Shown in pieces: positions 160 to 12,591 of a stretch of 64,000 bases of DNA. The notes under the pieces are model-generated. The model was given only the letters and a program-made list of their open reading frames with translations. It was not told where the DNA came from and ran no database searches. The stretch lies in IMG/VR virus record IMGVR_UViG_3300025704_000003. One strand, 5' to 3'. Each line of letters begins with the position of its first letter. Within the stretch, counting starts at the first letter, position 1. The DNA is from a virus. The position numbers and the translations under genes are program-made.

Positions 160-268
160 GCATATAAAAATTCTAGAAGAAAATGTTAGGCAGCTTCAAG
201 AACAATTGAATGCTGCTTACATTCGTATAGAAGAATTAAGAAATCCTAAAGAGAACTTTATTAAATGA
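146..268 (+). CDS. small hypothetical protein (40 aa)
   Basis: MTKDEHIKILEENVRQLQEQL...; stop overlaps the kdsA start (ATGA). Confidence 0.55.
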   Translation: MTKDEHIKILEENVRQLQEQLNAAYIRIEELRNPKENFIK

Positions 269-1047
269 TAAGAATAATTGCAGGACCGTGCCAGCACGAA
301 TCATTTGAACAGTCTTTAAAAATTGCTGAGCATTGCAATGAGATATGTAATAAGTATGGCATAGAGTATTATTTTAAAGCAAGTTTTGATAAGGCTAATC
401 GCACGTCTCTAAGTGGCGAGCGCGGTGTAGGAATTGATGCTGCTCTTCCGGATCTCTTAGCTTTAAAGGAAACTCTTGGTATAAAGATTTTAACAGATGT
501 TCACACCGAGGGACAAATAAGTAGATGCCGAAGTTTTGTAGATGTTTTACAGATTCCTGCATTTCTATGTCGACAAACAGATCTTATTTTAGCTGCTTGT
601 AACACTGATTGCATTGTTAATATTAAGAAAGGCCAGTTCCTAGCACCGTGGGATGTTAAAGGCATTCTTAGTAAAACAAAGGATGCTAAAGAAGTCTGGA
701 TCACCGAAAGAGGTACAAGTTTTGGATATAATACCTTGGTTGTTGATTTTACTGGCCTGCAGTACATGCTTGACAATTTTGATAATATTGTACTTGATGC
801 CACTCACTCAGTGCAAAAGCCAGGAGGACAAGGTGATAGTAGTGGGGGTAATAGGGATTATGTCCCAGGTCTTTGCAGGTCTGCTTCTGCTTTGGGTGTT
901 TCAAACTTCTTCATAGAAGTACATGAAGATCCAGACAATGCGCCAAGTGATGGACCTAATATGTTAAAATTAGAAGATTTTGATAAAGTAGTAGAGCAGA
1001 TAGTAGAGTTTAATTATGACGTCAACAGCAATACTTATTCCAGCTAG
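265..1047 (+). CDS. kdsA: KDO-8-phosphate synthase
   Basis: IAGPC, KASFDKANRTS, QIPAFLCRQTDL, NIKKGQF, ERG, DATHSVQ and SDGPN motifs. Confidence 0.95.
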   Translation: MIRIIAGPCQHESFEQSLKIAEHCNEICNKYGIEYYFKASFDKANRTSLSGERGVGIDAALPDLLALKETLGIKILTDVHTEGQISRCRSFVDVLQIPAFLCRQTDLILAACNTDCIVNIKKGQFLAPWDVKGILSKTKDAKEVWITERGTSFGYNTLVVDFTGLQYMLDNFDNIVLDATHSVQKPGGQGDSSGGNRDYVPGLCRSASALGVSNFFIEVHEDPDNAPSDGPNMLKLEDFDKVVEQIVEFNYDVNSNTYSS

Positions 1048-1699
1048 ATATAATTCTACAAGATTTCCTGGCAAACCGCTTGTAGATCTGGGCGGCGCGC
1101 CAATGATTCAACGTGTCTACGATAATTGCGTACAATCCGGCATCGACACTTATGTGTTGACAGATGATATGCGTATTTTTTCCTTATTTGGATCTAATAA
1201 TTGTTGGATAGATAAAACTGAATATTCTAATGGAACAGAGAGATGCGCAGGTGCTATAAAGTCTCGGTTCTTTAAGCAATATGATCAGTTCATTAACGTA
1301 CAAGGTGACATGCCAGATGTGACGCAAGAGATGATTGAAAAGACTATCTGGCATTTAAAAAATTATTCTGTTACTACTATGTGTGCTATGATGCCAGAAG
1401 AACAGCAGAATGATCCCAACACAGTTAAGTTAGTGAGAGCAGCTGATAAATGTTTGTGGTTTGGTAGAGGCATAACAGGATATGGAGATTGGCATTTAGG
1501 TATCTATGGATACAAGCGAAATGCCCTAGAAATGTATCCAGGTTTGACAGGCACCCGCGAAGAACGAATAGAAGGATTAGAACAATTACGTTGGCTAAAA
1601 AATGGCTGGGATATAGGTGTATTTCCATGCGAGTTTAATGGAATAGAAATTAACACAGCAGAAGATGCAAGGAAATGGAATGAAACTATACGATCTTGA
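1016..1699 (+). CDS. kdsB: CMP-KDO synthetase (3-deoxy-manno-octulosonate cytidylyltransferase)
   Basis: [32 protein letters not shown] and LEQLRWL motifs. Confidence 0.93.
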
Positions 1700-1901
1700 A
1701 CAGCCAATTATGGACTGTTGGCATATATGTAATGATCTTGAGACAGTGTTCAAACAGATCGGTGATGGTGAACGTGAGCCTACCCACGATGAGATGATGA
1801 ACGCCCTCATGGGGATTCAGCAACTTTATCAGTGGAAGTTTGAGCAATTATTTTTTATGTATGAACAGGTGATAAAATCACAGCGAGGAGAATTAGAATG
1901 A
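1680..1901 (+). CDS. hypothetical protein
   Basis: ORF coupled to both neighbours; start chosen at MKLYDLEQ. Confidence 0.7.
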
Positions 1902-2239
1902 TCGCAGGTAAGGTGTGGGGAAATACGGAACTCGTAGAAGCAAATGGTGCTTTGGAATTCCATCGCATTGAAATGAATAAAGGTGGAGTGTGTTCTAAGC
2001 ATCTTCATGAATTTAAGTGGAATGGATTCTATGTAGAGTCGGGTCGTATGCTTATTCGTGTATGGCAGAAAGACTACGACTTGGTTGATGAAACCATTCT
2101 CGAGCCTGGAATGTACACAAAGGTCAAGCCAGGTGTATATCATCAATTCGAATGTCTTGAAGATGGCGTAGCGTTTGAGTTGTACTGGGCTGAGTTTAAT
2201 CACAACGATATTAAACGAGAAACAGTAGGCCACGCGTGA
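1898..2239 (+). CDS. cupin-domain protein (sugar isomerase-like)
   Basis: [12 protein letters not shown] and PGVYHQF cupin metal motifs. Confidence 0.7.
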
Positions 2240-2658
2240 AAGTAGGATTTACAGCATCCACATTTGATTTACTTCACGCGGGACATGTTGCCATGTTACG
2301 TGAAGCAAAGTCTGTTTGTGACTATTTGATTTGTGGTTTACAAGTAGATCCAACGCTTGATAGACCAAAAAAGAATCAACCTGTTCAATCGATAGTAGAA
2401 AGACAGGCTCAGTTAGCAGCAATAAAATATGTTGATGAGGTAATTATTTATTGTACAGAATCTGATTTATGTGATATAATAAACATGTATCCAATTGATG
2501 TACGTATTCTTGGTGAAGAGTACAGAGATAAAGATTTTACTGGTAAGGATGAGTGTCGCAAACGTGGCATTCAACTTTATTTTAATAAGCGAGACCATAG
2601 GTTCTCGTCGTCTGATTTGAGAAAGAGAGTTCAATATGCAAATGACAGCAGTCCGTGA
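2236..2658 (+). CDS. glycerol-3-phosphate cytidylyltransferase-like (TagD family)
   Basis: FDLLHAGH (HxGH), YVDEV, SSSDLR. Confidence 0.85.
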   Translation: MKVGFTASTFDLLHAGHVAMLREAKSVCDYLICGLQVDPTLDRPKKNQPVQSIVERQAQLAAIKYVDEVIIYCTESDLCDIINMYPIDVRILGEEYRDKDFTGKDECRKRGIQLYFNKRDHRFSSSDLRKRVQYANDSSP

Positions 2659-3319
2659 CATTCGTCAGTATTTTATTGATGAACTAAAAGACGAAGCATA
2701 TACAATTGATAAGACCGGCGCTAAGACAATAGAAATGCTTGGCGCATCTTTTATTGCTGATGAGGCAGCTATCTTTGGAACAGTCAGCTATGATTATGTT
2801 CAAGAAGAATTAGAATGGTATGACAGCCAATCTACAAACATTAATGATATTCGCGAAGTACCTCCAAAAGCTTGGGAGTACGCTGCAAATAAACATGGTG
2901 AAATTAATTCTAATTATGGACATCTTATCTTTTCAGACAAATACTATAATCAATATGGTTGTGTGCTAGATGAATTGTTAGAAAGACCAGACGGCCGGCG
3001 CGCTTCTATGATCTACAATAGGCCGTCTATTTGGTTGGAGTTTAATGAAAATGGAAAATCGGATTTTATTTGTACTAACAGTGTCACTTACTATATTCGT
3101 GATAGCATTCTACATTCTGTAGTTCAGATGCGTTCTAATGATGTTGTCTTTGGATATAAGAATGATTACGCATGGCAACGTGAAGTAATGAGAAGATTAG
3201 TCAGAGATTATAACGGCTTAAGCCTTTATGATGACGGCGCTCAAATCGAAGAAGGTTCTATTACATGGCAAGTACAAAACCTGCACGTCTATGAAAAGCA
3301 CTTCCACCTTGTCAAGTAA
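2636..3319 (+). CDS. 42: dCMP hydroxymethylase (T4 gp42-like)
   Basis: DKTGAKTIEMLGASFIADE, ELEWY, GEINSNYG, DFICTN, MRSNDVVFGYKNDYAWQ and LHVY closely match T4 gp42, including the dCMP-specifying Asp. Confidence 0.88.
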   Translation: MQMTAVRDIRQYFIDELKDEAYTIDKTGAKTIEMLGASFIADEAAIFGTVSYDYVQEELEWYDSQSTNINDIREVPPKAWEYAANKHGEINSNYGHLIFSDKYYNQYGCVLDELLERPDGRRASMIYNRPSIWLEFNENGKSDFICTNSVTYYIRDSILHSVVQMRSNDVVFGYKNDYAWQREVMRRLVRDYNGLSLYDDGAQIEEGSITWQVQNLHVYEKHFHLVK

Positions 3320-3785
3320 GTGGGATCACCGCTATTTGGGATTAGCAAGAGAAGTCTCAAGTTGGTCTAAAGATCCGTCTACTCAGATCGGCGCAATCGC
3401 TGTTGGATCTAAAGGTCAAGTATTAGCTCAGGGTTATAACGGTTTTCCGCGTGGAATTTACGATGGCGATATCCGCTATAATGATAGAAAAACAAAATAT
3501 CAGTTTGTTGTGCACGCAGAACAGAATGTTATATACAATGCCACATATAACGGCGTATCATTAGATCAAGCAACTTTGTATGTGTGGGGTCTTCCTGTCT
3601 GCTCTGACTGCGCAAAAGGTATTATACAGGTAGGCATAACTCGTGTTGTAATGCCTGCTGCCGATTATCCTGATAAGTGGCTGGAATCCTTTGAGCGTAC
3701 AAGCGATATGTTTGGAGAAACTGGAGTTGAATATGAATTTATCGAATGTGATTACGAACCCTATAAGCAATATACCCAAGAATGA
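3291..3785 (+). CDS. cd: dCMP deaminase
   Basis: WSKDPSTQIGA, GYNGFPRG, HAEQN, PVCSDCAK; start uncertain (3291 ATG or 3309 TTG). Confidence 0.9.
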   Translation: MKSTSTLSSKWDHRYLGLAREVSSWSKDPSTQIGAIAVGSKGQVLAQGYNGFPRGIYDGDIRYNDRKTKYQFVVHAEQNVIYNATYNGVSLDQATLYVWGLPVCSDCAKGIIQVGITRVVMPAADYPDKWLESFERTSDMFGETGVEYEFIECDYEPYKQYTQE

Positions 3786-4698
3786 AAAGTCCCACGTGCA
3801 CGGGTGGACTCAACTGTGGCGAGATCAATTAAAAGCTTCTATTGACCACAAATGCACACCTCAAATTAAAAAAGCTGACGTAGTCTATATAGATCATGGG
3901 GCTAATTTTAGTGGTACTTTGAATTTGTTTGGTGGCGCTAACAAAGAAGTATATGACAGAATTAATCTTGTAATGTCATGCGATAACATTGTTTCGTTAG
4001 ATTGGGATATGCCTGATTATGGAGAGATGTTGAAGAAACGACTTGAAGCTCCTACAACATATAAAGGCATCACTCCTATGTGGTGTAATGCTGTCTCTAA
4101 ACGAATTAGAAGTATTACATCCCTCAAGCAGAAGGATCTAAAAACCGATGGCATTACCTTTGGAGATTCACACACAATCGCTTATAGCGGGGCTGGCGAT
4201 CGCGTGTACCGTACTGATGGTAAAACTTTATTTGGAACTATTCGAAAAGGTTTACGATCTGAAATATCGGAATCCATTGGAAAGCTTACATTATGTATGG
4301 GCTCAATTGATATTAGGCATCATGTTTTACGTCATGGCGATTTTTCTCTTAGATATACAATAAAAGAATATGTAAGACAAGGCAACGAATTATCTGACGA
4401 TGTATGGTTTACCGCTCCAGTGCCGGTAGAGTTTGAAGGTAGACGTATACCTAAATCAGGATTTTACAAAAAGACTCCATTCTTTGGTTCATGGAAAGAG
4501 CGGTGGGATCTTACAAACGAATTTATTGACGTGCTTAATGATGAGTCTAAAGGCAAAGTCATTATGCCACCAAAAGAATGGTATACAATGGATCCTGAAA
4601 AATACGCAAATACCTATATGGAACATGGTTCTAGTTTTCATATAGCCCCGCCATATTATAGACGCAACGATTGGGGAGTATCGCCTCTTGCCACATAA
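3733..4698 (+). CDS. putative DNA-base modifying enzyme: BGT-like N-terminal domain plus SGNH-like acyltransferase/hydrolase domain
   Basis: GGAG SD; N-terminal NLFGGAN resembles the T4 BGT NFFGGKPN loop; C-terminal FGDSH, GSIDIRHH and SFH. Confidence 0.45.
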   Translation: MNLSNVITNPISNIPKNEKSHVHGWTQLWRDQLKASIDHKCTPQIKKADVVYIDHGANFSGTLNLFGGANKEVYDRINLVMSCDNIVSLDWDMPDYGEMLKKRLEAPTTYKGITPMWCNAVSKRIRSITSLKQKDLKTDGITFGDSHTIAYSGAGDRVYRTDGKTLFGTIRKGLRSEISESIGKLTLCMGSIDIRHHVLRHGDFSLRYTIKEYVRQGNELSDDVWFTAPVPVEFEGRRIPKSGFYKKTPFFGSWKERWDLTNEFIDVLNDESKGKVIMPPKEWYTMDPEKYANTYMEHGSSFHIAPPYYRRNDWGVSPLAT

Positions 4699-5575
4699 TA
4701 ATCACGTTATTGATAAAATTAATAAAGATATTAATCCGTTTTACGGAGACCCGAAAGAGTACTATTTAGAATTAGCAGAAAACTGGGAGGATCCTTATGG
4801 AATCCCACATATTAGCCGGCATAACAATATTCGTGTTGTCCGTGATGATTTTTTGGTTGGCTCTAAAGTTCGTGGTGGCGATTGCCTCATCAGTAGCCTG
4901 GGCCCTCACATTGATACTATCGTTTACGTTCAACCTCGCACTGGCCTTGCTGGTGTTAGTATACTTGACGTGGCCAAGCGACACGAAAAAGACGTCATGC
5001 TTTTCATGCCCTCCTCAAAACGAATTAGCGATCACCAAGCCTGCTGCATCGAACGAGGGGCTCGTACTAGTTTTCATAGAATAGCAGCTATGCCTAATTT
5101 AAATCTAATTGCAAAGAAATGGGCCGATGAAAGAAAGAATGCTTTCTTTGTTCCGCTAGGTCTTAAGCATGAAATGGTAACGGCAGGCATTGTAAAGACA
5201 GCTTCTAAGATAAAAGAACCTGAAGAAGTATATACTGCCACGTCTACTGGGGTACTTACAAGAGCTTTACAAATCGCGTGGCCTAATGCCAAGTTTACTT
5301 CTGTTTGCGTGTCACGCAATATGAAGGCTGGTGAATTGGGTATTGCAGAGGCAGTATCAGAACCATTAGCGTTTACCGCGGCAGAGAAAAAAGATAATCT
5401 TCCACCATTCCCAACTATAGATACCTACGATGGTAAAGTATGGAAATATATTCCTAAAGATACAAATCGCGATATTCTATTTTGGAATGTAGGGCAGGAA
5501 CCAGTATTACAGAATCAAGCGTTACCAGATACAATAGATTCATATAGAGATTGGGAAAAGAATGTGGCTCAATGA
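4688..5575 (+). CDS. PLP-dependent enzyme (fold type II), similar to DNA-hypermodification PLP enzymes
   Basis: VVRDDFLVGSKVRG (Schiff-base Lys), STGVLTRAL, YDGKVW, LFWNVG. Confidence 0.75.
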   Translation: MPHNNHVIDKINKDINPFYGDPKEYYLELAENWEDPYGIPHISRHNNIRVVRDDFLVGSKVRGGDCLISSLGPHIDTIVYVQPRTGLAGVSILDVAKRHEKDVMLFMPSSKRISDHQACCIERGARTSFHRIAAMPNLNLIAKKWADERKNAFFVPLGLKHEMVTAGIVKTASKIKEPEEVYTATSTGVLTRALQIAWPNAKFTSVCVSRNMKAGELGIAEAVSEPLAFTAAEKKDNLPPFPTIDTYDGKVWKYIPKDTNRDILFWNVGQEPVLQNQALPDTIDSYRDWEKNVAQ

Positions 5576-6578
5576 AGAAGCAATTGATGTTCTTGTAAAT
5601 TATTATTATCCAAAAGCCGGTTGGTTACAAGATAATGTTAATTGGGGTGAATTGGACTATGAAGGTCCAGAAGCAAATAACATTATCAATGATCCTCTTA
5701 TGCAAAAGATTGATATCTACGATTGTAAAACGAGAAATGCTGCAGGCTTCTCAAACGTATTACAAGATCTAAGGTTCGGATCTAAAACTCCTAAGTGGAG
5801 ATGGCAGAAAGAAGATAGACGTAAGATTTCAGCATCAAACGATGATATTAACTGGACTATTGAAACCTGGCTATACACATTTCTTTGTCATCGCATAACT
5901 GGATCAGGGGCTTCATTTGAAAATGACCACGGTTATCGTAATAACATAATTCAACATTGGAGTAAACATAGAGACATTAAAGATATGGCAGAAGATTTAG
6001 CAGAGACTAAAGCTTCAGGCAAACCAATGTTTACGTCTATAGGCAATCAACCTCCGGCTCCAAAGAAAGGAGTTAGTAATGTTGACTTCATGGTAAATGA
6101 ATTGCCTGAAGTTATTAACAGGTTTACAGATTTTCTACTTTTGAAAAAAAGAGGACATAAAGAAATTGTAGATCATTTAAATGAGCATAATAAAAAAGCT
6201 GGTCATCGTAAATTTAATTTTCAGTATGCTGCCTTCTCTATGGATTGTTCTGACTATTTTCCAGAAAATGCTGACGTAGACTCTCATACATATTTAGGTA
6301 ATAACGCAGTAAGGTGCATGAAAAAATTATCAAGTGGGTGGAAGCCAGATAATTTTATGGACTTATTAAGAGAAAAAACTGGTGGTAAACCAAAAGATCT
6401 TGAAGATGTTATGTGTGACTTTGTTAGGTTCGGACAAAACTATGTACCACGTGGAAATGGAACGTTTGATCATATTCCTTCGACATTATCAAATGCATCT
6501 GGATGGGAATCCGGCTGGGAACAAAGACAAGGAATTCCGCCTATGAGGGGTGTACAACTAGATGAATTTATGGTATAA
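5562..6578 (+). CDS. aGPT-Pplase-like (amino acid/amine:DNA transferase family) protein
   Basis: KPMFTS, YLGNNAVRCM and DLEDVMCDFVRF resemble the aGPT-Pplase C-terminal ExxxCE/DF motif; adjacent to the PLP enzyme. Confidence 0.55.
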   Translation: MWLNEEAIDVLVNYYYPKAGWLQDNVNWGELDYEGPEANNIINDPLMQKIDIYDCKTRNAAGFSNVLQDLRFGSKTPKWRWQKEDRRKISASNDDINWTIETWLYTFLCHRITGSGASFENDHGYRNNIIQHWSKHRDIKDMAEDLAETKASGKPMFTSIGNQPPAPKKGVSNVDFMVNELPEVINRFTDFLLLKKRGHKEIVDHLNEHNKKAGHRKFNFQYAAFSMDCSDYFPENADVDSHTYLGNNAVRCMKKLSSGWKPDNFMDLLREKTGGKPKDLEDVMCDFVRFGQNYVPRGNGTFDHIPSTLSNASGWESGWEQRQGIPPMRGVQLDEFMV

Positions 6579-6584
6579 TAAACT

Positions 6585-7436
6585 ATGTTAAAAATTACAA
6601 TCATTGGCCACGGATTTGTTGGCAAGGCAATCGATTACGCATTTCAAGATGACGTAGAAAAACAAATTATCGATCCTAAATATGGGGTCGGTTTAGATGA
6701 TGTATCAATATCTGCTGATGTTACATTTATGTGTCTACCGACTCCAATGCACGAAAATGGACAGTGCGATACGTCTATCGTTGAACAACTTTTAAAGAAA
6801 GTTGCACAACGACGAAGCGGTCTAATAGTTGTTAAATCCACAATACCACCTGATAGAATAGAAAATTTATTCCGTGGTTCTGCTAAACATAGAATGGTTT
6901 ATAATCCAGAATTCTTGACAGAAAAGAATGCCAATGAAGATATTATAAATCCATTCGTACATATCTTTGGTGGCGAAAGCGAAGCTACTGAAAAGCTGGA
7001 AAGAATTTATAAAGAATACAGTATATGTAAACCATGTCCTTCATATCATATGGCAGCAACTGATGCTAGCTTTGTTAAATATGGAATCAATACTTTTCTA
7101 GCAACTAAACTAACATTCTTTAACGAATTTTATGATTCGATAAAAGAGTTCGGAGGTAATTATGGTCGTATCGCAAATGCAATTGGTACTGATCCAAGAA
7201 TTGGGCATGCCCATACTCGTGTCCCTGGCTTTGACGGCAAGCGTGGTTTTGGCGGTGCTTGTTTTCCAAAAGATGTTTCGGCGTTTATAAACTTTACTAC
7301 ACGTATGCCGTTGCTTGAATATGTCATGGATCGTAATAATAAGTATCGATCTGAATATGAAAAAGATGATAGAGAAAAAGAACAAAACATTCAGTATAAT
7401 ATGACTGGCGAAATAGCACATGTGAATGAACGATGA
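6585..7436 (+). CDS. ugd: UDP-glucose/GDP-mannose dehydrogenase family
   Basis: GHGFVG, CLPTP, KSTIPP, NPEFL, GFGGACFPKD. Confidence 0.9.
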   Translation: MLKITIIGHGFVGKAIDYAFQDDVEKQIIDPKYGVGLDDVSISADVTFMCLPTPMHENGQCDTSIVEQLLKKVAQRRSGLIVVKSTIPPDRIENLFRGSAKHRMVYNPEFLTEKNANEDIINPFVHIFGGESEATEKLERIYKEYSICKPCPSYHMAATDASFVKYGINTFLATKLTFFNEFYDSIKEFGGNYGRIANAIGTDPRIGHAHTRVPGFDGKRGFGGACFPKDVSAFINFTTRMPLLEYVMDRNNKYRSEYEKDDREKEQNIQYNMTGEIAHVNER

Positions 7437-8371
7437 AAGTATTCATAACAGGAATAACTGGCTTTATCGGGTTTCATCTGGCCCGTGAGCTTAAAGCTTT
7501 CGGGCATACTATTTTAGGTGTAGATAACTTTAACGCTTATTATGATAAAAACCTAAAAATGGATCGAGCAAAGATTTTAAATGATTCGGCTATACAAACG
7601 TATGCTGATGATATACGGCATTTTAATTACCTTCAAGATTATCTAGATGACGTAGATGTAATTGTTCACTTGGCTGCTTGGGCTGGAGTAAGAAACTCGC
7701 TGGACGATCCGTACACCTATATTGATAATAATATCAATGGAACACAACGAGTAATTGATCAGGCAGAAAAACTTAATATTCCTGTTGTCTATGCTTCTAG
7801 TTCTAGCGTCTATGCAGGACAAGAACCTCCATTTGTTGAGGATATGCAATTCAAGCATCATTTAAATCCTTATGCTTGGACTAAATATGCAAATGAATGC
7901 CAATTTAAAAGCAGTAAATTGCCTTCGTCAATTGGCTTTAGATTTTTTACAGTCTATGGACCTTATGGACGACCTGACATGGCTTTACATGGATTTACAA
8001 ACAATATCATCAAAGGTAGACCAATTGATGTTTATGGCTTTGGCGAAATGTCCCGCGATTTTACCTATGTACAAGACATCGTAAATGGTGTACAATTGTT
8101 AATAGATAAAGTGCTTAGAAGTAAGTCTCACGAAATCTATAACATTGGCAGCGGAAAATCAATTCCGCTTATGAAATTCGTAAATCTTATTGAAGAAAAT
8201 CTAGAACGTAAAGCAGACATTAATTATTGTGATATGCATAAAGCTGACATTCGTCACACATTAGCTGATATATCAGAGATCAAGAAACTGGGTTATAGAC
8301 CTATGACAAATATTGAAACTGGTATTGCTGAATTTGTATCATGGTACAAACAATATTATAACGTAAATTAG
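7433..8371 (+). CDS. NAD-dependent epimerase (UDP-glucuronate 4-epimerase-like)
   Basis: TGITGFIG, HLAAWAGVR, ASSSSVY, YAWTK, RFFTVYGPYGRPDMA. Confidence 0.9.
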   Translation: MKVFITGITGFIGFHLARELKAFGHTILGVDNFNAYYDKNLKMDRAKILNDSAIQTYADDIRHFNYLQDYLDDVDVIVHLAAWAGVRNSLDDPYTYIDNNINGTQRVIDQAEKLNIPVVYASSSSVYAGQEPPFVEDMQFKHHLNPYAWTKYANECQFKSSKLPSSIGFRFFTVYGPYGRPDMALHGFTNNIIKGRPIDVYGFGEMSRDFTYVQDIVNGVQLLIDKVLRSKSHEIYNIGSGKSIPLMKFVNLIEENLERKADINYCDMHKADIRHTLADISEIKKLGYRPMTNIETGIAEFVSWYKQYYNVN

Positions 8372-8382
8372 GAGACACACAT

Positions 8383-9429
8383 ATGTCAGTAATGGACAAA
8401 CTCAAAAAGAATTCTAAGTTAAAAAACACGGAGGTTCTTTCTGAGTCAAAATTCTTTAATGAAAAAGATATGACTCCGACAGATTCGCCAATGATTAACG
8501 TGGCGCTATCTGGATCTGTAGATGGAGGTTTGGCTTCTGGTCTTACAGTTCTTGCAGGTCCTTCAAAGCATTTTAAAACTTCTTTTGCTTTGATTATGGC
8601 AGCAGCATATTTGAAAAAGCATAAAGATGCTGTAATGTTGTTCTATGATTCAGAGTTTGGTTCACCTCAGGCATACTTTGAGCAATTTGAAGTTGATACA
8701 TCTCGTGTTCTTCATACACCAATTACAAACGTAGAAGAACTAAAATTCGATATGATTGGTCAATTAGAATCGTTAGACCGCGGTGATAAAGTAATTGTCG
8801 TCATTGATTCTATTGGCAACCTTGCTTCTAAAAAAGAAATGGAAGATGCACTAAACGAAAAGTCAGTTGCTGATATGTCAAGAGCAAAAGCTCTTAAAGG
8901 ATTGTTCCGTATGGCCACGCCATATCTTGCTATGAAAAACATTCCTATGTTAGCAGTTAATCATACGTACCAAGAAATCGGCTTGTTCCCTAAAGCTATT
9001 GTTTCTGGTGGCACAGGCATTTATTATTCTGCAGATAATATTTGGATCCTTGGTCGTCAGCAAGACAAAAAGGGTACAGAGATTCAAGGGTACCATTTTG
9101 TAATCAATGTAGAGAAATCACGCTATGTTAAAGAAAAATCTAAAATTCCTATTACTGTTTCTTGGGACGGTGGTGTCCGTAAGTATTCTGGTTTGCTCGA
9201 TTGCGCTCTTGCTGGTGGTTATGTTACTAAGCCTTCCAATGGCTGGTATGCTATGGTCGATCAAACTACTGGCGAAGTTGGACCAAAAGTTCGGCACGAT
9301 GCCACTCTCGATCAGTCCTTCTGGGACCCAATCTTTGCTGATACGGATTTTAAAGAGTTCTTGAAAAAGCAATACACGATCGGCCACAGAGAACAAGTAT
9401 CCATGGATGAAATCATTGAGGAAGCATAA
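8383..9429 (+). CDS. uvsX: UvsX RecA-like recombinase
   Basis: AGPSKHFKT, FYDSEFG, DSIGNLASKKE, SGGTG. Confidence 0.96.
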   Translation: MSVMDKLKKNSKLKNTEVLSESKFFNEKDMTPTDSPMINVALSGSVDGGLASGLTVLAGPSKHFKTSFALIMAAAYLKKHKDAVMLFYDSEFGSPQAYFEQFEVDTSRVLHTPITNVEELKFDMIGQLESLDRGDKVIVVIDSIGNLASKKEMEDALNEKSVADMSRAKALKGLFRMATPYLAMKNIPMLAVNHTYQEIGLFPKAIVSGGTGIYYSADNIWILGRQQDKKGTEIQGYHFVINVEKSRYVKEKSKIPITVSWDGGVRKYSGLLDCALAGGYVTKPSNGWYAMVDQTTGEVGPKVRHDATLDQSFWDPIFADTDFKEFLKKQYTIGHREQVSMDEIIEEA

Positions 9430-9734
9430 TGATTAATATCGACAAACTCTCAGAAGGGGTAGATTACGAATTAATTCCATCACCAGAAAACGATCAGTCT
9501 TGGTGGATCAGAGTTCTTACTGGTCCATACGTTGAAACAGTAATACAATTTGGCGCTATTACAATTAATGGGCCAGATGAAGCTATTCATTATAATTTTG
9601 AAATCATTGAAACGCCTGATGATACCTTAAATACTGACGACGAAAACTTTCAACAATATACCGGATTAGTACTGCACGACGTGATTGAAATGGCAATCTT
9701 AAAAGATGAATTGCTTATGGAAGACAAAAAATGA
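9429..9734 (+). CDS. hypothetical protein (T4 gp40 syntenic position)
   Basis: Acidic 101 aa ORF between uvsX and gene 41. Confidence 0.6.
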   Translation: MINIDKLSEGVDYELIPSPENDQSWWIRVLTGPYVETVIQFGAITINGPDEAIHYNFEIIETPDDTLNTDDENFQQYTGLVLHDVIEMAILKDELLMEDKK

Positions 9735-10150
9735 AAATACTAATAATGGGATTGCCAGGTTCTGGTAAAACACATCTAGCCAAGCGGCTACAGATCCATC
9801 TGAATTGTGCTTGGTACAATGCTGATAAAGTACGGGAAATGGCGAATGACTGGGACTTTAGTGATGCTGGTCGTAGGCGACAATCAGAGCGTATGAATAC
9901 GATTGCAACATTTGAAGGTACTAGAGGTCGTACTGTCATATGTGACTTTGTTTGTCCAACAGGTGCTACTCGTCAAGAGTTCAACGCCGATATCATAATT
10001 TGGATGAACACTATCGAAGCAGGCCGGTTTGATGATACCAACAAGATCTTCGAAGAGCCAACCGACTTTGATTATGTTATTGACGCATTTCAATCTGATG
10101 AGTGGATCCTAGATTTAGCTAACCGGATGAAGGAGACATACCATGTTTGA
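9731..10150 (+). CDS. adenylylsulfate kinase-like P-loop kinase
   Basis: MGLPGSGKT, NADKVR, WDFSDAGRRRQ, CDFVCP, FEEP. Confidence 0.75.
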   Translation: MKILIMGLPGSGKTHLAKRLQIHLNCAWYNADKVREMANDWDFSDAGRRRQSERMNTIATFEGTRGRTVICDFVCPTGATRQEFNADIIIWMNTIEAGRFDDTNKIFEEPTDFDYVIDAFQSDEWILDLANRMKETYHV

Positions 10151-10553
10151 TTGGAAAAAGCCGTCGGCGCAAATGTTAGGGCGATGGCAGCCTTGGCATA
10201 AAGGCCACACGGAATTATTTAAAAAAGCTTTGGGTCAAACCGGGCAAGTTGTTATTATGGTTCGTGATGTTGGCGGGATTGTTGGTGAAGATGCTGGCGG
10301 TGGAAGGACAGAAGCTCAAACTGATAATCCCTTTGGATTTGATTTTGTTTCTTCACAAATTGTTGAAGGATTGGCCCGTGAGGGGTTTACTATCAATAAA
10401 GAATATGTTATAATGGAGGTACCAAACATCGTAGACATTAGCTATGGTCGTGGCGTCGGATATACCTTCACGCAGCACGATCTTGGTAATGATATTCATA
10501 ATATTAGTGCTACAAAAATCCGTGCAAAAATGCGTGAAGAGGGAATGCTTTGA
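10143..10553 (+). CDS. HxGH nucleotidyltransferase (cytidylyltransferase/ATP-sulfurylase-like)
   Basis: GRWQPWHKGH, ISATKIR. Confidence 0.75.
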   Translation: MFDWKKPSAQMLGRWQPWHKGHTELFKKALGQTGQVVIMVRDVGGIVGEDAGGGRTEAQTDNPFGFDFVSSQIVEGLAREGFTINKEYVIMEVPNIVDISYGRGVGYTFTQHDLGNDIHNISATKIRAKMREEGML

Positions 10554-11914
10554 CGAACATTGAACAAACAATTTTGAGAAACCTTCTGGTGAATGATAAA
10601 TTCATGCGGAAGGTTTTACCTTTTATACATAATGAATATTTTGAAGGTGTCTATCGTCAGCTGTTTAAGGAAGTCGGCAAATACGTTTCTAAATATAATA
10701 AACTACCAACTCAGGAATCATTTAAGATTGAGTTAGATGATTCTGATAGCTTTAACGATGAACAATATCGGCATGCTGTTGAGATCCTACCAGAGATCTT
10801 TAAAGTCGAAGATATTGATTATGAATGGCTAATCGATAAAACCGAGAAGTGGTGTCAAGATAGAGCATTGCACAATGCAGTAATGGAATCTATCAGTATT
10901 ATTGACGGTAAACACCAAACGCTTTCAAAGAATGCGCTACCAGAGATCCTCTCTGATGCTCTGGCAGTTAACTTTGACGCGAATATCGGTCATGACTATA
11001 TTGAAAACTTCAATGATCGTTATGAGTTTTACCATAAAGAAGAAGAACGTATTGCCTTTGATCTCGACTACTTTAATAAGATTACTAAGGGCGGCTTGCC
11101 AAACAAGACATTGAATATTGCTTTGGCTGGCACCGGTGTCGGTAAGTCTTTGTTTATGTGCCACATGGGCGCTGCAGCATTGACTGACCAAAAAAATGTT
11201 TTGTATATTACTATGGAAATGGCAGAAGAACGTATCGCTGAACGCATTGATGCTAATCTTCTTAATATCCCTATTGATCAGCTAGACAAACTTTCGAAAG
11301 ATATGTTTTCACAAAAGGTATCTCAACTAGCAAAACAAACAACTGGCCGATTGATCGTAAAAGAATATCCAACGGGTTCAGCACACTCTGGGCACTTTAG
11401 GGCATTACTAAATGAGTTAAAACTTAAAAAGAAATTTGAACCAGATATTATCTTTATTGATTATTTAAATATCTGTTCGTCTTCACGTATGAAAGGTATG
11501 GGCGGTGCTATCAACTCTTACACTTATGTCAAAGCGATTGCAGAAGAACTTAGAGGCCTTGCAGTTGAATTTGACGTTCCGGTCGTATCTGCAACTCAGA
11601 CGACGCGTAGTGGTTACTCTAACTCAGATGTTGGGCTTGAAGATACGTCCGAGTCTTTTGGATTACCCGCAACGGCCGACCTTATGTTCGCACTTGTTTC
11701 AACCGAAGAACTTGAACAACAAGGACAACTGATGGTTAAGCAATTGAAGAATCGCTATAATGATCCAACATATAAGAAAAGGTTTATTCTAGGAATAGAT
11801 AGATCTAAGATGCGTCTATTTGACGTAGACGAAAATAACCAATCTCTAATGGATGATACTCCAGTATTTGATAAATCAGAAGCAAATAAAAGATTTGAGG
11901 ACTTTAAACTATGA
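10550..11914 (+). CDS. 41: replicative DNA helicase gp41
   Basis: AGTGVGKS, TMEMAEE, IDYLNI, SATQTTRSG, KQLKNRY. Confidence 0.96.
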   Translation: MTNIEQTILRNLLVNDKFMRKVLPFIHNEYFEGVYRQLFKEVGKYVSKYNKLPTQESFKIELDDSDSFNDEQYRHAVEILPEIFKVEDIDYEWLIDKTEKWCQDRALHNAVMESISIIDGKHQTLSKNALPEILSDALAVNFDANIGHDYIENFNDRYEFYHKEEERIAFDLDYFNKITKGGLPNKTLNIALAGTGVGKSLFMCHMGAAALTDQKNVLYITMEMAEERIAERIDANLLNIPIDQLDKLSKDMFSQKVSQLAKQTTGRLIVKEYPTGSAHSGHFRALLNELKLKKKFEPDIIFIDYLNICSSSRMKGMGGAINSYTYVKAIAEELRGLAVEFDVPVVSATQTTRSGYSNSDVGLEDTSESFGLPATADLMFALVSTEELEQQGQLMVKQLKNRYNDPTYKKRFILGIDRSKMRLFDVDENNQSLMDDTPVFDKSEANKRFEDFKL

Positions 11915-12591
11915 CCATGGAAGCTCGCCTAATTTCACACAGTCAGCCATCTTACCGTATTCATGGCGGAGAATTGGCAATAGGAGGTTTAGATAACATT
12001 GCGGATCTCATCGCGTTTGCCGCCCGTGTCTCCAATCCGTCGAATCAGCGGAACACAAAGACAACACAAAAACTCTTGGAGTACCTCGTCAAGCACAAGC
12101 ACTGGTCACCATTCGAAATGGCGTCAGCGTGCATCGAAGTCACCACGACAAGAGACATCGCCAGACAGTTACTCCGGCATCGTTCGTTTTCTTTTCAGGA
12201 GTTTAGTCAGCGCTATGCTGATGTACGTGATCTTGGTAATAATTTTGTAATCCGAGAGGCACGCCTACAAGATACTAAGAATCGTCAGAATAGTGTTGAG
12301 ACTGATGATGTACATCTTCAAAGAGCGTGGCATGCCCATCAGCAAAAAGTAATCGAAGCGGCGAAGCATGCTTATGACTGGGCTATTGAAGCAGGCATTG
12401 CCAAAGAGCAAGCCAGAGCTGTTCTGCCGGAAGGCAATACCGTTTCTAGATTGTATGTGAATGGTACTATTAGATCATGGATTCATTATATCGAACTTCG
12501 ATCTGCAAATGGAACACAGAAAGAACATATGGATTTGGCTATCGAAGTAGGTAAAGCTATTGAAAAAATATTTCCAATAAAGCTAAATTAA
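11911..12591 (+). CDS. thyX: flavin-dependent thymidylate synthase
   Basis: HWSPFE, RHRSFSFQEFSQRY, AKEQARAVLP, TQKEH. Confidence 0.95.
   Translation: MTMEARLISHSQPSYRIHGGELAIGGLDNIADLIAFAARVSNPSNQRNTKTTQKLLEYLVKHKHWSPFEMASACIEVTTTRDIARQLLRHRSFSFQEFSQRYADVRDLGNNFVIREARLQDTKNRQNSVETDDVHLQRAWHAHQQKVIEAAKHAYDWAIEAGIAKEQARAVLPEGNTVSRLYVNGTIRSWIHYIELRSANGTQKEHMDLAIEVGKAIEKIFPIKLN

Follow-up and report, generated by a model that had tools for sequence, protein, structure and literature searches.

A phage protein joining a T4 β-glucosyltransferase-type acceptor domain to an SGNH-fold domain probably starts a new decoration of hydroxymethylcytosine in DNA

To our knowledge, two types of post-replicative chemistry are known at phage hydroxymethyl-pyrimidines: the transfer of a glycosyl group, and phosphorylation with a subsequent substitution. 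In the T4 β-glucosyltransferase (BGT), the acceptor domain holds the DNA and the flipped 5-hydroxymethylcytosine (hmC). In phage M6, gp55 (family PF18723, a helical domain), formerly named aGPT-Pplase1 (PMC9476957), is encoded beside the P-loop 5-hydroxymethyldeoxyuridine (5-hmdU) DNA kinase gp54, and gp52 is a decarboxylase acting on amino acids tethered to DNA bases (PMC8989533). Pplase2 removes a leaving group from C5-CH2 and has the metal-binding/catalytic motif E222-T223-x-x-C226 (PMC13458397). Phages 44RR, 31 and 25 of Aeromonas have genes 42 and 56 but no glucosyltransferase, and the fate of their hmC was left open (PMC2993671). Here we describe the gene at 3733..4698 (+) of IMG/VR record IMGVR_UViG_3300025704_000003, a stretch of 64,000 nucleotides (hereafter the window) from an uncultured marine T4-like myovirus. 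Its product of 321 amino acids (aa) is probably an undescribed enzyme that starts a new chemical decoration of hmC in phage DNA.

The N-terminal part of the 321-aa protein is related to the acceptor domain of T4 BGT. Comparison by hhalign of its family with a 27-member T4 BGT family aligned residues 1-105 with BGT 1-118 over 101 columns (probability 95.1%, E 3.1e-8), while unrelated alpha/beta profiles used as controls gave P 0.26-0.37. A direct BLASTP of the protein against T4 BGT was not significant. The N-terminal domain was also folded alone (aa 6-131, 48 sequences taken from the loci described below), with a predicted local distance difference test score (pLDDT) of 92. In an exhaustive VIA structure search of 48,161 chains, its first match was T4 BGT itself (1c3j_A, residues 4-135; Z 5.0, root-mean-square deviation (rmsd) 3.3, 96 aligned residues), and the T4 α-glucosyltransferase (AGT, 1y6f) ranked sixth (Z 4.4). 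The homology is considered settled because of the profile-profile comparison, the structural Z alone being weak. The NLFGG loop aligns with N70-F-F-G73-G74, which is invariant in BGTs. In an alignment of 92 sequences with 27-68% identity to the 321-aa protein, from which all conservation counts were taken, N64 is kept in 90/92 and G68 in 87/92. Residue D90 aligns with BGT Asp100, the proposed general base of that enzyme. The BGT alignment stops at residue 105 and nothing beyond it aligns; the UDP-glucose (uridine diphosphate glucose) Rossmann domain of BGT, with its invariant R191, R269 and E272 and nearly invariant R195, has no counterpart in the 321-aa protein. The Pfam BGT model PF09198 found T4 (E 1e-99) and nothing in 44RR or in the relatives G001 and G003. 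By these comparisons, the N-terminal domain is remotely homologous to the acceptor part of BGT and to nothing else in it, and the whole protein is not a BGT; a glycosyltransferase identity was rejected, as there is no GT-B donor domain.

The C-terminal part was modeled with the five-stranded alpha/beta/alpha fold of SGNH proteins. AlphaFold2 run on the 92-sequence alignment gave a pLDDT of 95.7 and a predicted template modeling score (pTM) of 0.92 for the whole protein. With the C-terminal domain (residues ~132-316), the best VIA match was 3p94_A (Z 11.3, rmsd 3.5, 163 aligned residues). SGNH/GDSL proteins, this one included, made up most of the 50 matches listed, which comprised acetyl-xylan and sialate esterases and the peptidoglycan O-acetyltransferases PatB and OatA; no GT-B structure was found among these 50. 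In agreement with this, the best Foldseek match was 3mil_B (E 5.9e-4), and one neighbour cluster in the ESM Atlas bears the name SGNH (score 0.94). The GDSH motif directly follows the first strand of the domain (140-144), which is the place of SGNH block I, and aligns, although weakly, with the GDSL of E. coli TesA (hhalign P 0.04); its G, S and H are found in 92/92 sequences. In the block-III-like loop, D193 and R195 are invariant, H197 is kept in 91/92 and H196 in 83/92, and at the Asn position (192) of G190-(S/N)-I-D193 there is Ile or Val in 90/92. Further on, E297 (91/92) and H303 (92/92) are both located in the loop before the last helix. Overall, the residues invariant in 92/92 sequences are G144, S146, H147, D193, R195, R237, R257 and H303, and H21, N64, D145, H197 and E297 are at least 98% conserved. 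On these models, the C-terminal domain is an SGNH fold and not a GT-B donor domain, with a putative catalytic centre formed by Ser146 and His303 (and possibly Glu297) among invariant Arg/His residues.

An earlier note, made by reading the letters of the window, had proposed that the N-terminal half recalls the T4 BGT N-domain and that the C-terminal half is of SGNH type instead of a UDP-glucose-binding domain. All the motifs it quoted were found in the protein, namely VVYIDHGANFSGTLNLFGGAN (aa 50-70), SLDWDMP (aa 88-94), GDSH (aa 144-147), GSIDIRHH (aa 190-197) and a late His (H303). The first proposal is borne out by the hhalign match, in which NLFGG faces NFFGG and D90 faces Asp100, and the comparison of the N-domain with GT-B folds found a relationship (1c3j_A first of 48,161) rather than a refutation. 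The second agrees with Z values of up to 11.3 for SGNH structures and with the lack of any alignment to the BGT C-domain. As chemistry, the note suggested a DNA O-acyltransferase or de-acylase working on the hydroxymethyl group or a later intermediate, and both are weighed below as candidate activities. The pairing with a Pplase1-like protein, also described below, is not part of the note.

The 321-aa gene occupies the slot of b-gt in T4, between the gp42 ortholog and uvsX. The order is 42, b-gt, segA, uvsX, 40, 41 in T4, and gp42, deoxycytidine monophosphate (dCMP) deaminase, the 321-aa gene, a gene for a pyridoxal phosphate (PLP)-like enzyme, the partner gene 5562-6578, two sugar-nucleotide genes, uvsX and gp41 in the window (Table 1). 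The product of 2636-3319 keeps the SND and NDYAWQ motifs in addition to its match with the T4 dCMP hydroxymethylase 1b49, and is therefore an hmC enzyme. On the same grounds, S-N-D kept and 1.7e-71 to T4 gp42, we rejected a 5-hydroxycytosine synthase (D169N signature, PMC13326640) for this ThyA homolog. To study the neighbourhood, 99 related loci were compared, 80 from IMG/VR and 19 from contigs of metagenome-assembled genomes, with 27-92% identity. Among the 45 loci that extend 3 kb or more on either flank, a relative of the partner was present in 45/45, a gp42 homolog in 41/45 and the PLP-like gene in 34/45. The linkage persists at 27-40% identity and in a non-T4 context (locus L092). The link to base-modification genes on which the earlier note had made its proposal depend was thus found, and it is a tight one with hmC genes. 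No homolog of the M6 P-loop kinase, of AADT (Pplase2, PF18724 family; searched by tblastn), of a radical S-adenosylmethionine enzyme or of T4 BGT was found among the 99 loci. We consider it highly probable that hmC in DNA is what the 321-aa protein acts on, as part of a pathway of hypermodification.

Table 1. Features of the window discussed in the text. Positions are those of the whole stretch; the last column gives the basis of each assignment.
Feature	Position	Strand	Basis
321-aa two-domain protein, phrog_13881	3733..4698	+	ORF 3691-4698, PHROG, AF2 model
N-terminal domain, aa 1-131, T4 BGT acceptor/DNA-domain homolog	3733..4125	+	hhalign, VIA
NLFGG loop, aa 64-68	3922..3936	+	conservation, BGT alignment
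Asp90, opposite BGT Asp100	4000..4002	+	hhalign alignment
C-terminal SGNH-fold domain, aa 132-321	4126..4695	+	VIA, Foldseek, ESM Atlas
GDSH, aa 144-147, SGNH block I, putative nucleophile Ser146	4162..4173	+	invariance, position
GSIDIRHH, aa 190-197, block-III-like loop with Arg/His cluster	4300..4323	+	alignment
E297...H303, putative block V acid and His	4621..4641	+	alignment, loop position
gp42 ortholog, dCMP hydroxymethylase	2636..3319	+	PDB 1b49 E 1.7e-71
dCMP deaminase	3228..3785	+	Pfam PF00383 E 3.7e-17; phrog_174
Fold-type-II PLP enzyme, M6 gp52 homolog	4688..5575	+	hhalign; phrog_7093
Pplase1/PF18723-like partner, 338 aa	5562..6578	+	homology to fusion C-halves
UDP-glucose dehydrogenase-like and SDR epimerase, accessory	6585..8371	+	Pfam, NCBIfam
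KdsA, KdsB, cupin, cytidylyl/adenylyltransferase, accessory	265..2658	+	NCBIfam
uvsX, synteny landmark	8383-9429	+	Pfam, PHROG
gp41 helicase, synteny landmark	10550-11914	+	Pfam, PHROG

In some relatives, the partner is part of the same polypeptide. The partner aligned at 100% hhalign probability (E 4e-56) with the C-halves of fusion proteins of 720-795 aa, the N-halves of which are homologs of the 321-aa protein. Such fusions of the 321-aa homolog with a Pplase-like protein are found in the cultured Aeromonas phages 44RR, 31 and 25; in 44RR2.8t the fusion is ORF233c. A link to the PF18723 family was obtained through intermediates. P0214, a protein of 981 aa, contains an FkbM methyltransferase, PF18723 (43 bits) and a 321-aa homolog. 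In the loci L094, L097 and L103, the gene just upstream of the 321-aa homolog matches PF18723 at 37-45 bits (threshold 25) and also matches the fusion C-half by tblastn, and the ESM Atlas neighbours of the partner carry PF18723. The partner has an invariant E281-D282-x-x-C285, resembling the Pplase2 motif given above. The PLP-like protein aligned with M6 gp52 over 217 columns (hhalign 96.9%, E 1.8e-10), in addition to weak PALP and cysteine synthase matches. This obligate pairing, and in some cases fusion, with a Pplase1-like protein suggests that the role of the 321-aa protein is to open a hypermodification pathway by an activating step.

Based on these data, a pathway can be proposed in which the gp42 ortholog, by homology, would yield hmC-containing DNA. 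The N-terminal domain of the 321-aa protein may have descended from a T4-type BGT acceptor domain, the UDP-glucose domain having been swapped for an SGNH-fold domain. The protein would bind hmC in DNA and esterify its 5-CH2OH, most likely after taking up an acyl group on Ser146 from an acyl thioester; as a precedent, the SGNH enzyme TesA is annotated as taking acyl-coenzyme A. The ester would then serve as a leaving group, like the phosphate made by the 5-hmdU DNA kinase (5-HMUDK) in thymidine hypermodification. By analogy, the Pplase1-like partner with its E-D-x-x-C motif would eliminate the ester and attach an amine or amino acid. In phages that have the M6-gp52-like PLP enzyme, this enzyme could then decarboxylate the attached amino acid. 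The pathway would end in a non-sugar hypermodified cytosine, which would shield the phage DNA from host nucleases. That the 321-aa protein esterifies the hydroxymethyl group of hmC in DNA and that the partner replaces the ester by an amine or amino acid is our preferred explanation, to which we give slightly less than an even chance. The wider idea, in which an SGNH acyl-enzyme aimed by a BGT-derived domain makes DNA O-acylation an activation step and a kinase-independent route to non-sugar hypermodified cytosines, is put forward somewhat more tentatively.

Several observations weigh against this explanation. For the N-terminal domain, the VIA Z of 5.0 is weak by itself and tied with TIR and flavodoxin-like folds, Foldseek with this domain alone gave no significant match, its GT-B rows being weak with E values of 0.1 or higher, and the D90 position is not universal, being acidic in 67/92 members (73%). 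For the C-terminal domain, the oxyanion-hole Asn of SGNH block III is absent, the late acid and His are spaced as E297-x5-H303 and not as the canonical block V D-x-x-H, no Pfam GDSL model matches the 321-aa protein, and the Arg/His-rich site would also suit phosphoryl chemistry. As for the partner, its link to PF18723 is a transitive one, resting on intermediates and an ESM Atlas lead, because the direct tests failed: hhalign of the partner against M6 gp55 (PF18723) and against the single P0214 gave no match, and Pfam scans of its close relatives gave no PF18723 match. A direct hhalign against M6 gp51 (AADT) gave no match either. Moreover, no catalytic role is proven for PF18723, M6 gp55 having been dispensable in vitro (PMC8989533).

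This last point bears on a different ending of the pathway, in which the 321-aa protein leaves a lasting O-acyl or O-aminoacyl mark on hmC (for instance an acetyl group or an amino acid linked by its side-chain carboxyl), the PLP enzyme tailors it and the Pplase-like protein is only a DNA/base-binding helper. What the fold and the motifs show fits this ending as well as a transient ester, SGNH O-acetyltransferases are among the structural matches of the C-terminal domain, M6 gp55 was not needed for group transfer (PMC8989533), and PLP enzymes related to the product of 4688..5575 act on DNA-tethered amino acids (PMC8989533). However, the invariant E-D-x-x-C of the partner, which is like the catalytic motif of Pplase2 (PMC13458397), argues for a catalytic role. 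In addition, an ester formed by the alpha-carboxyl would leave the decarboxylase no carboxylate, and on chemical reasoning benzylic-type esters would be labile in virion DNA. A lasting ester seems unlikely to us.

The composition of the active site and the failure to detect a kinase led to a second alternative, a phosphoryl or other non-acyl transferase acting as a non-P-loop analog of the 5-hmdU DNA kinase, with an Arg/His site and possibly a phospho-Ser or phospho-His intermediate. A search for PF18748, the 5-HMUDK P-loop kinase family, detected M6 as positive control. It found no member in the genome of 44RR, which is complete and has a gp42 homolog (E 1.6e-60), and none in a relative of the window phage that is 83% complete (151.7 kb). 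The 321-aa homolog takes the place of the P-loop kinase beside PF18723 in fusions and gene pairs, and the invariant R195, H196/H197, R200, R237 and R257, together with the lost oxyanion Asn, would suit an anionic transition state. Against such a transferase, no P-loop motif, nucleotide-binding motif or Pfam kinase match was found in the 321-aa protein, and all strong structural matches of its C-terminal domain are acyl hydrolases or transferases. We know of no SGNH-fold kinase. Phosphoryl chemistry is regarded as quite improbable. An APS-kinase-like (adenosine phosphosulfate kinase-like) gene of the window (9731-10150) was considered as the missing kinase and rejected, being found in 6/80 loci and not conserved with the module. 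It encodes a P-loop protein which, with a small HxGH-type nucleotidyltransferase (9731-10553 for the pair), corresponds to the two halves of phrog_10255; these halves sit between uvsX and gp41 in only 6/80 loci.

The Aeromonas phages are also informative on the direction of the reaction. Since most SGNH proteins are hydrolases, the 321-aa protein might be an esterase or de-acylase which, in a trimming or proofreading role, strips an ester from a mis-modified base or a later intermediate, or which frees a carrier from a tethered donor. However, no ester-installing enzyme is conserved in the module, and in the Aeromonas phages the whole module is the fusion of the 321-aa homolog and the partner alone, so that the 321-aa homolog must supply the forward step. 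The chance of a de-acylase is judged to be slim. In 44RR2.8t (locus L001, 4414-8394), the fusion ORF233c directly follows a Na+/solute symporter gene, ORF234c, and this symporter could take up the group with which the DNA is decorated.

The symporter gene adjoining the 44RR fusion and the KdsA, KdsB, UDP-glucose dehydrogenase-like and epimerase genes flanking the module in the window would also be compatible with a role away from DNA, on hydroxymethyl-dCMP, a sugar nucleotide or the host envelope. The upstream group (265-2658) comprises KdsA (E 7e-103), KdsB (E 2e-52), a WbuC-like cupin and an HldE-domain-II/TagD-like nucleotidyltransferase, running into gene 42; no 3-deoxy-D-manno-octulosonate (Kdo) transferase was seen near it. 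Between the module and uvsX are a short UDP-glucose dehydrogenase-like gene (283 aa) and an SDR epimerase/dehydratase gene, which may provide a sugar acid as nucleophile or may have an unrelated part in host takeover. The upstream group was found in 4-19/80 IMG/VR loci and the pair 6585-8371 in 13-15/80. Because they are present in few loci, the Kdo and UDP-sugar genes are accessory, and they were rejected as core parts (only 4-19/80). A role away from DNA is contradicted by this low frequency, as opposed to the near-universal gp42 and Pplase-like genes, by the homology of the N-terminal domain to a DNA-acceptor domain and by the fusions to a DNA-hypermodification domain; we find it extremely improbable.

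The gene itself belongs to a large phage family that bears no Pfam or NCBIfam name. The likely start of the protein is the ATG at 3733, with GGAG ahead, inside the open reading frame (ORF) 3691-4698 (+), since the N-terminus (M..VITNP) is conserved and homologs start at the same place. The gene shares its first 53 nt (3733-3785) with the end of the dCMP deaminase gene, and its stop (4698) is overlapped by the PLP-like ORF (start 4688); with these overlaps, the three genes look translationally coupled. The protein was assigned to PHROG 13881 (E 2e-97). Pfam and NCBIfam searches with it gave no match, even at E 10, and PDB sequence searches with the single protein and with the family profile gave none. 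At 50% identity, the family falls into 385 clusters, and relatives were found on at least 594 viral contigs.

Other arrangements were noticed around the family. The window has ~38% G+C and contains uvsX, a gp41-type helicase and thyX. The presence of thyX (11911-12591) besides the gp42 hydroxymethylase and the dCMP deaminase implies that deoxythymidine monophosphate (dTMP) supply is separate from hmC synthesis. Locus L092 (7974-13580) is a non-T4-like contig with an SNF2 helicase nearby, and carries a compact cassette in which the 321-aa homolog, the partner, the PLP enzyme, a MazG-type pyrophosphatase, a kinase-like protein, an Asp-type (dCMP-type) ThyA homolog and a dCMP deaminase follow in a row. 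In a distant branch (L094 1593-6545, L097 3155-4429, L103 5204-10234), a myo-inositol-1-phosphate synthase-like gene accompanies the pair of 321-aa homolog and PF18723 protein. In L094 and L103, the next gene downstream of the 321-aa homolog is C5 cytosine DNA methylase-like and takes the place of the PLP enzyme, which suggests that this branch forms a different final adduct. In P0123, a Tudor-like domain (PF21743, E 2e-5, below threshold) stands ahead of the 321-aa homolog. A related-locus search with P0214 gave no match.

If the proposed pathway is true, it would add a third entry step to hypermodification, made from a DNA glucosyltransferase whose donor domain was exchanged for an SGNH domain, and this route would be widespread in marine T4-like phages. 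It would also explain the fate of hmC in the gene-42-positive, glucosyltransferase-negative Aeromonas phages 44RR, 31 and 25, and would be a candidate answer to a question open since 2010, namely how T4 relatives with gene 42 and without glucosyltransferase finish their DNA. These phages are cultured, which makes the idea directly testable. The predicted cytosine adducts bear on restriction and CRISPR escape, on marine virome sequencing and on enzymes for site-specific 5hmC labelling.

Compared with T4 BGT (PF09198, 1c3j), the 321-aa protein shares the N-terminal Rossmann-like acceptor domain, the NxFGG loop and the slot that separates gene 42 from uvsX, and hmC in DNA is the expected target of both enzymes; its D90, at a position acidic in 73% of the family, aligns with Asp100. 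In contrast, the UDP-glucose C-domain of BGT is replaced by an SGNH domain, and the 321-aa protein cannot be a GT-B glycosyltransferase. With SGNH/GDSL hydrolases and O-acetyltransferases (TesA, PatB, OatA, sialate O-acetylesterases) it shares the fold (Z 9-11.3), a GDS after strand 1 and a late His, and this superfamily has precedent for acyl-Ser transfer to polymer hydroxyls. It differs from them by a fused DNA-binding-type domain, the lack of the block III Asn, the E-x5-H spacing and extra invariant Arg/His residues. Like 5-HMUDK (PF18748), the family is obligately paired or fused with a PF18723-type protein in a hydroxymethyl-pyrimidine cassette, and is likewise proposed for the first post-replicative step, but with an SGNH instead of a P-loop fold and with hmC instead of 5-hydroxymethyluracil (hmU) as the base. 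A literature search recovered no work connecting an SGNH domain with 5-HMUDK or with hmC/hmU hypermodification. The module follows the logic of the thymidine cassettes of M6, ViI, PaMx11 and SH-Ab 15599 (kinase, Pplase/AADT, PLP decarboxylase) and shares two homologous parts with them, a Pplase-superfamily protein and the PLP enzyme, which matches M6 gp52 at E 1.8e-10. Unlike them, it is built on gp42-type hmC, is devoid of a kinase, showed no Pplase2/AADT homolog by tblastn in the 99 loci and has a proposed first enzyme of a new type. The type of pathway is thus known from these systems, while the first enzyme and its architecture are not.

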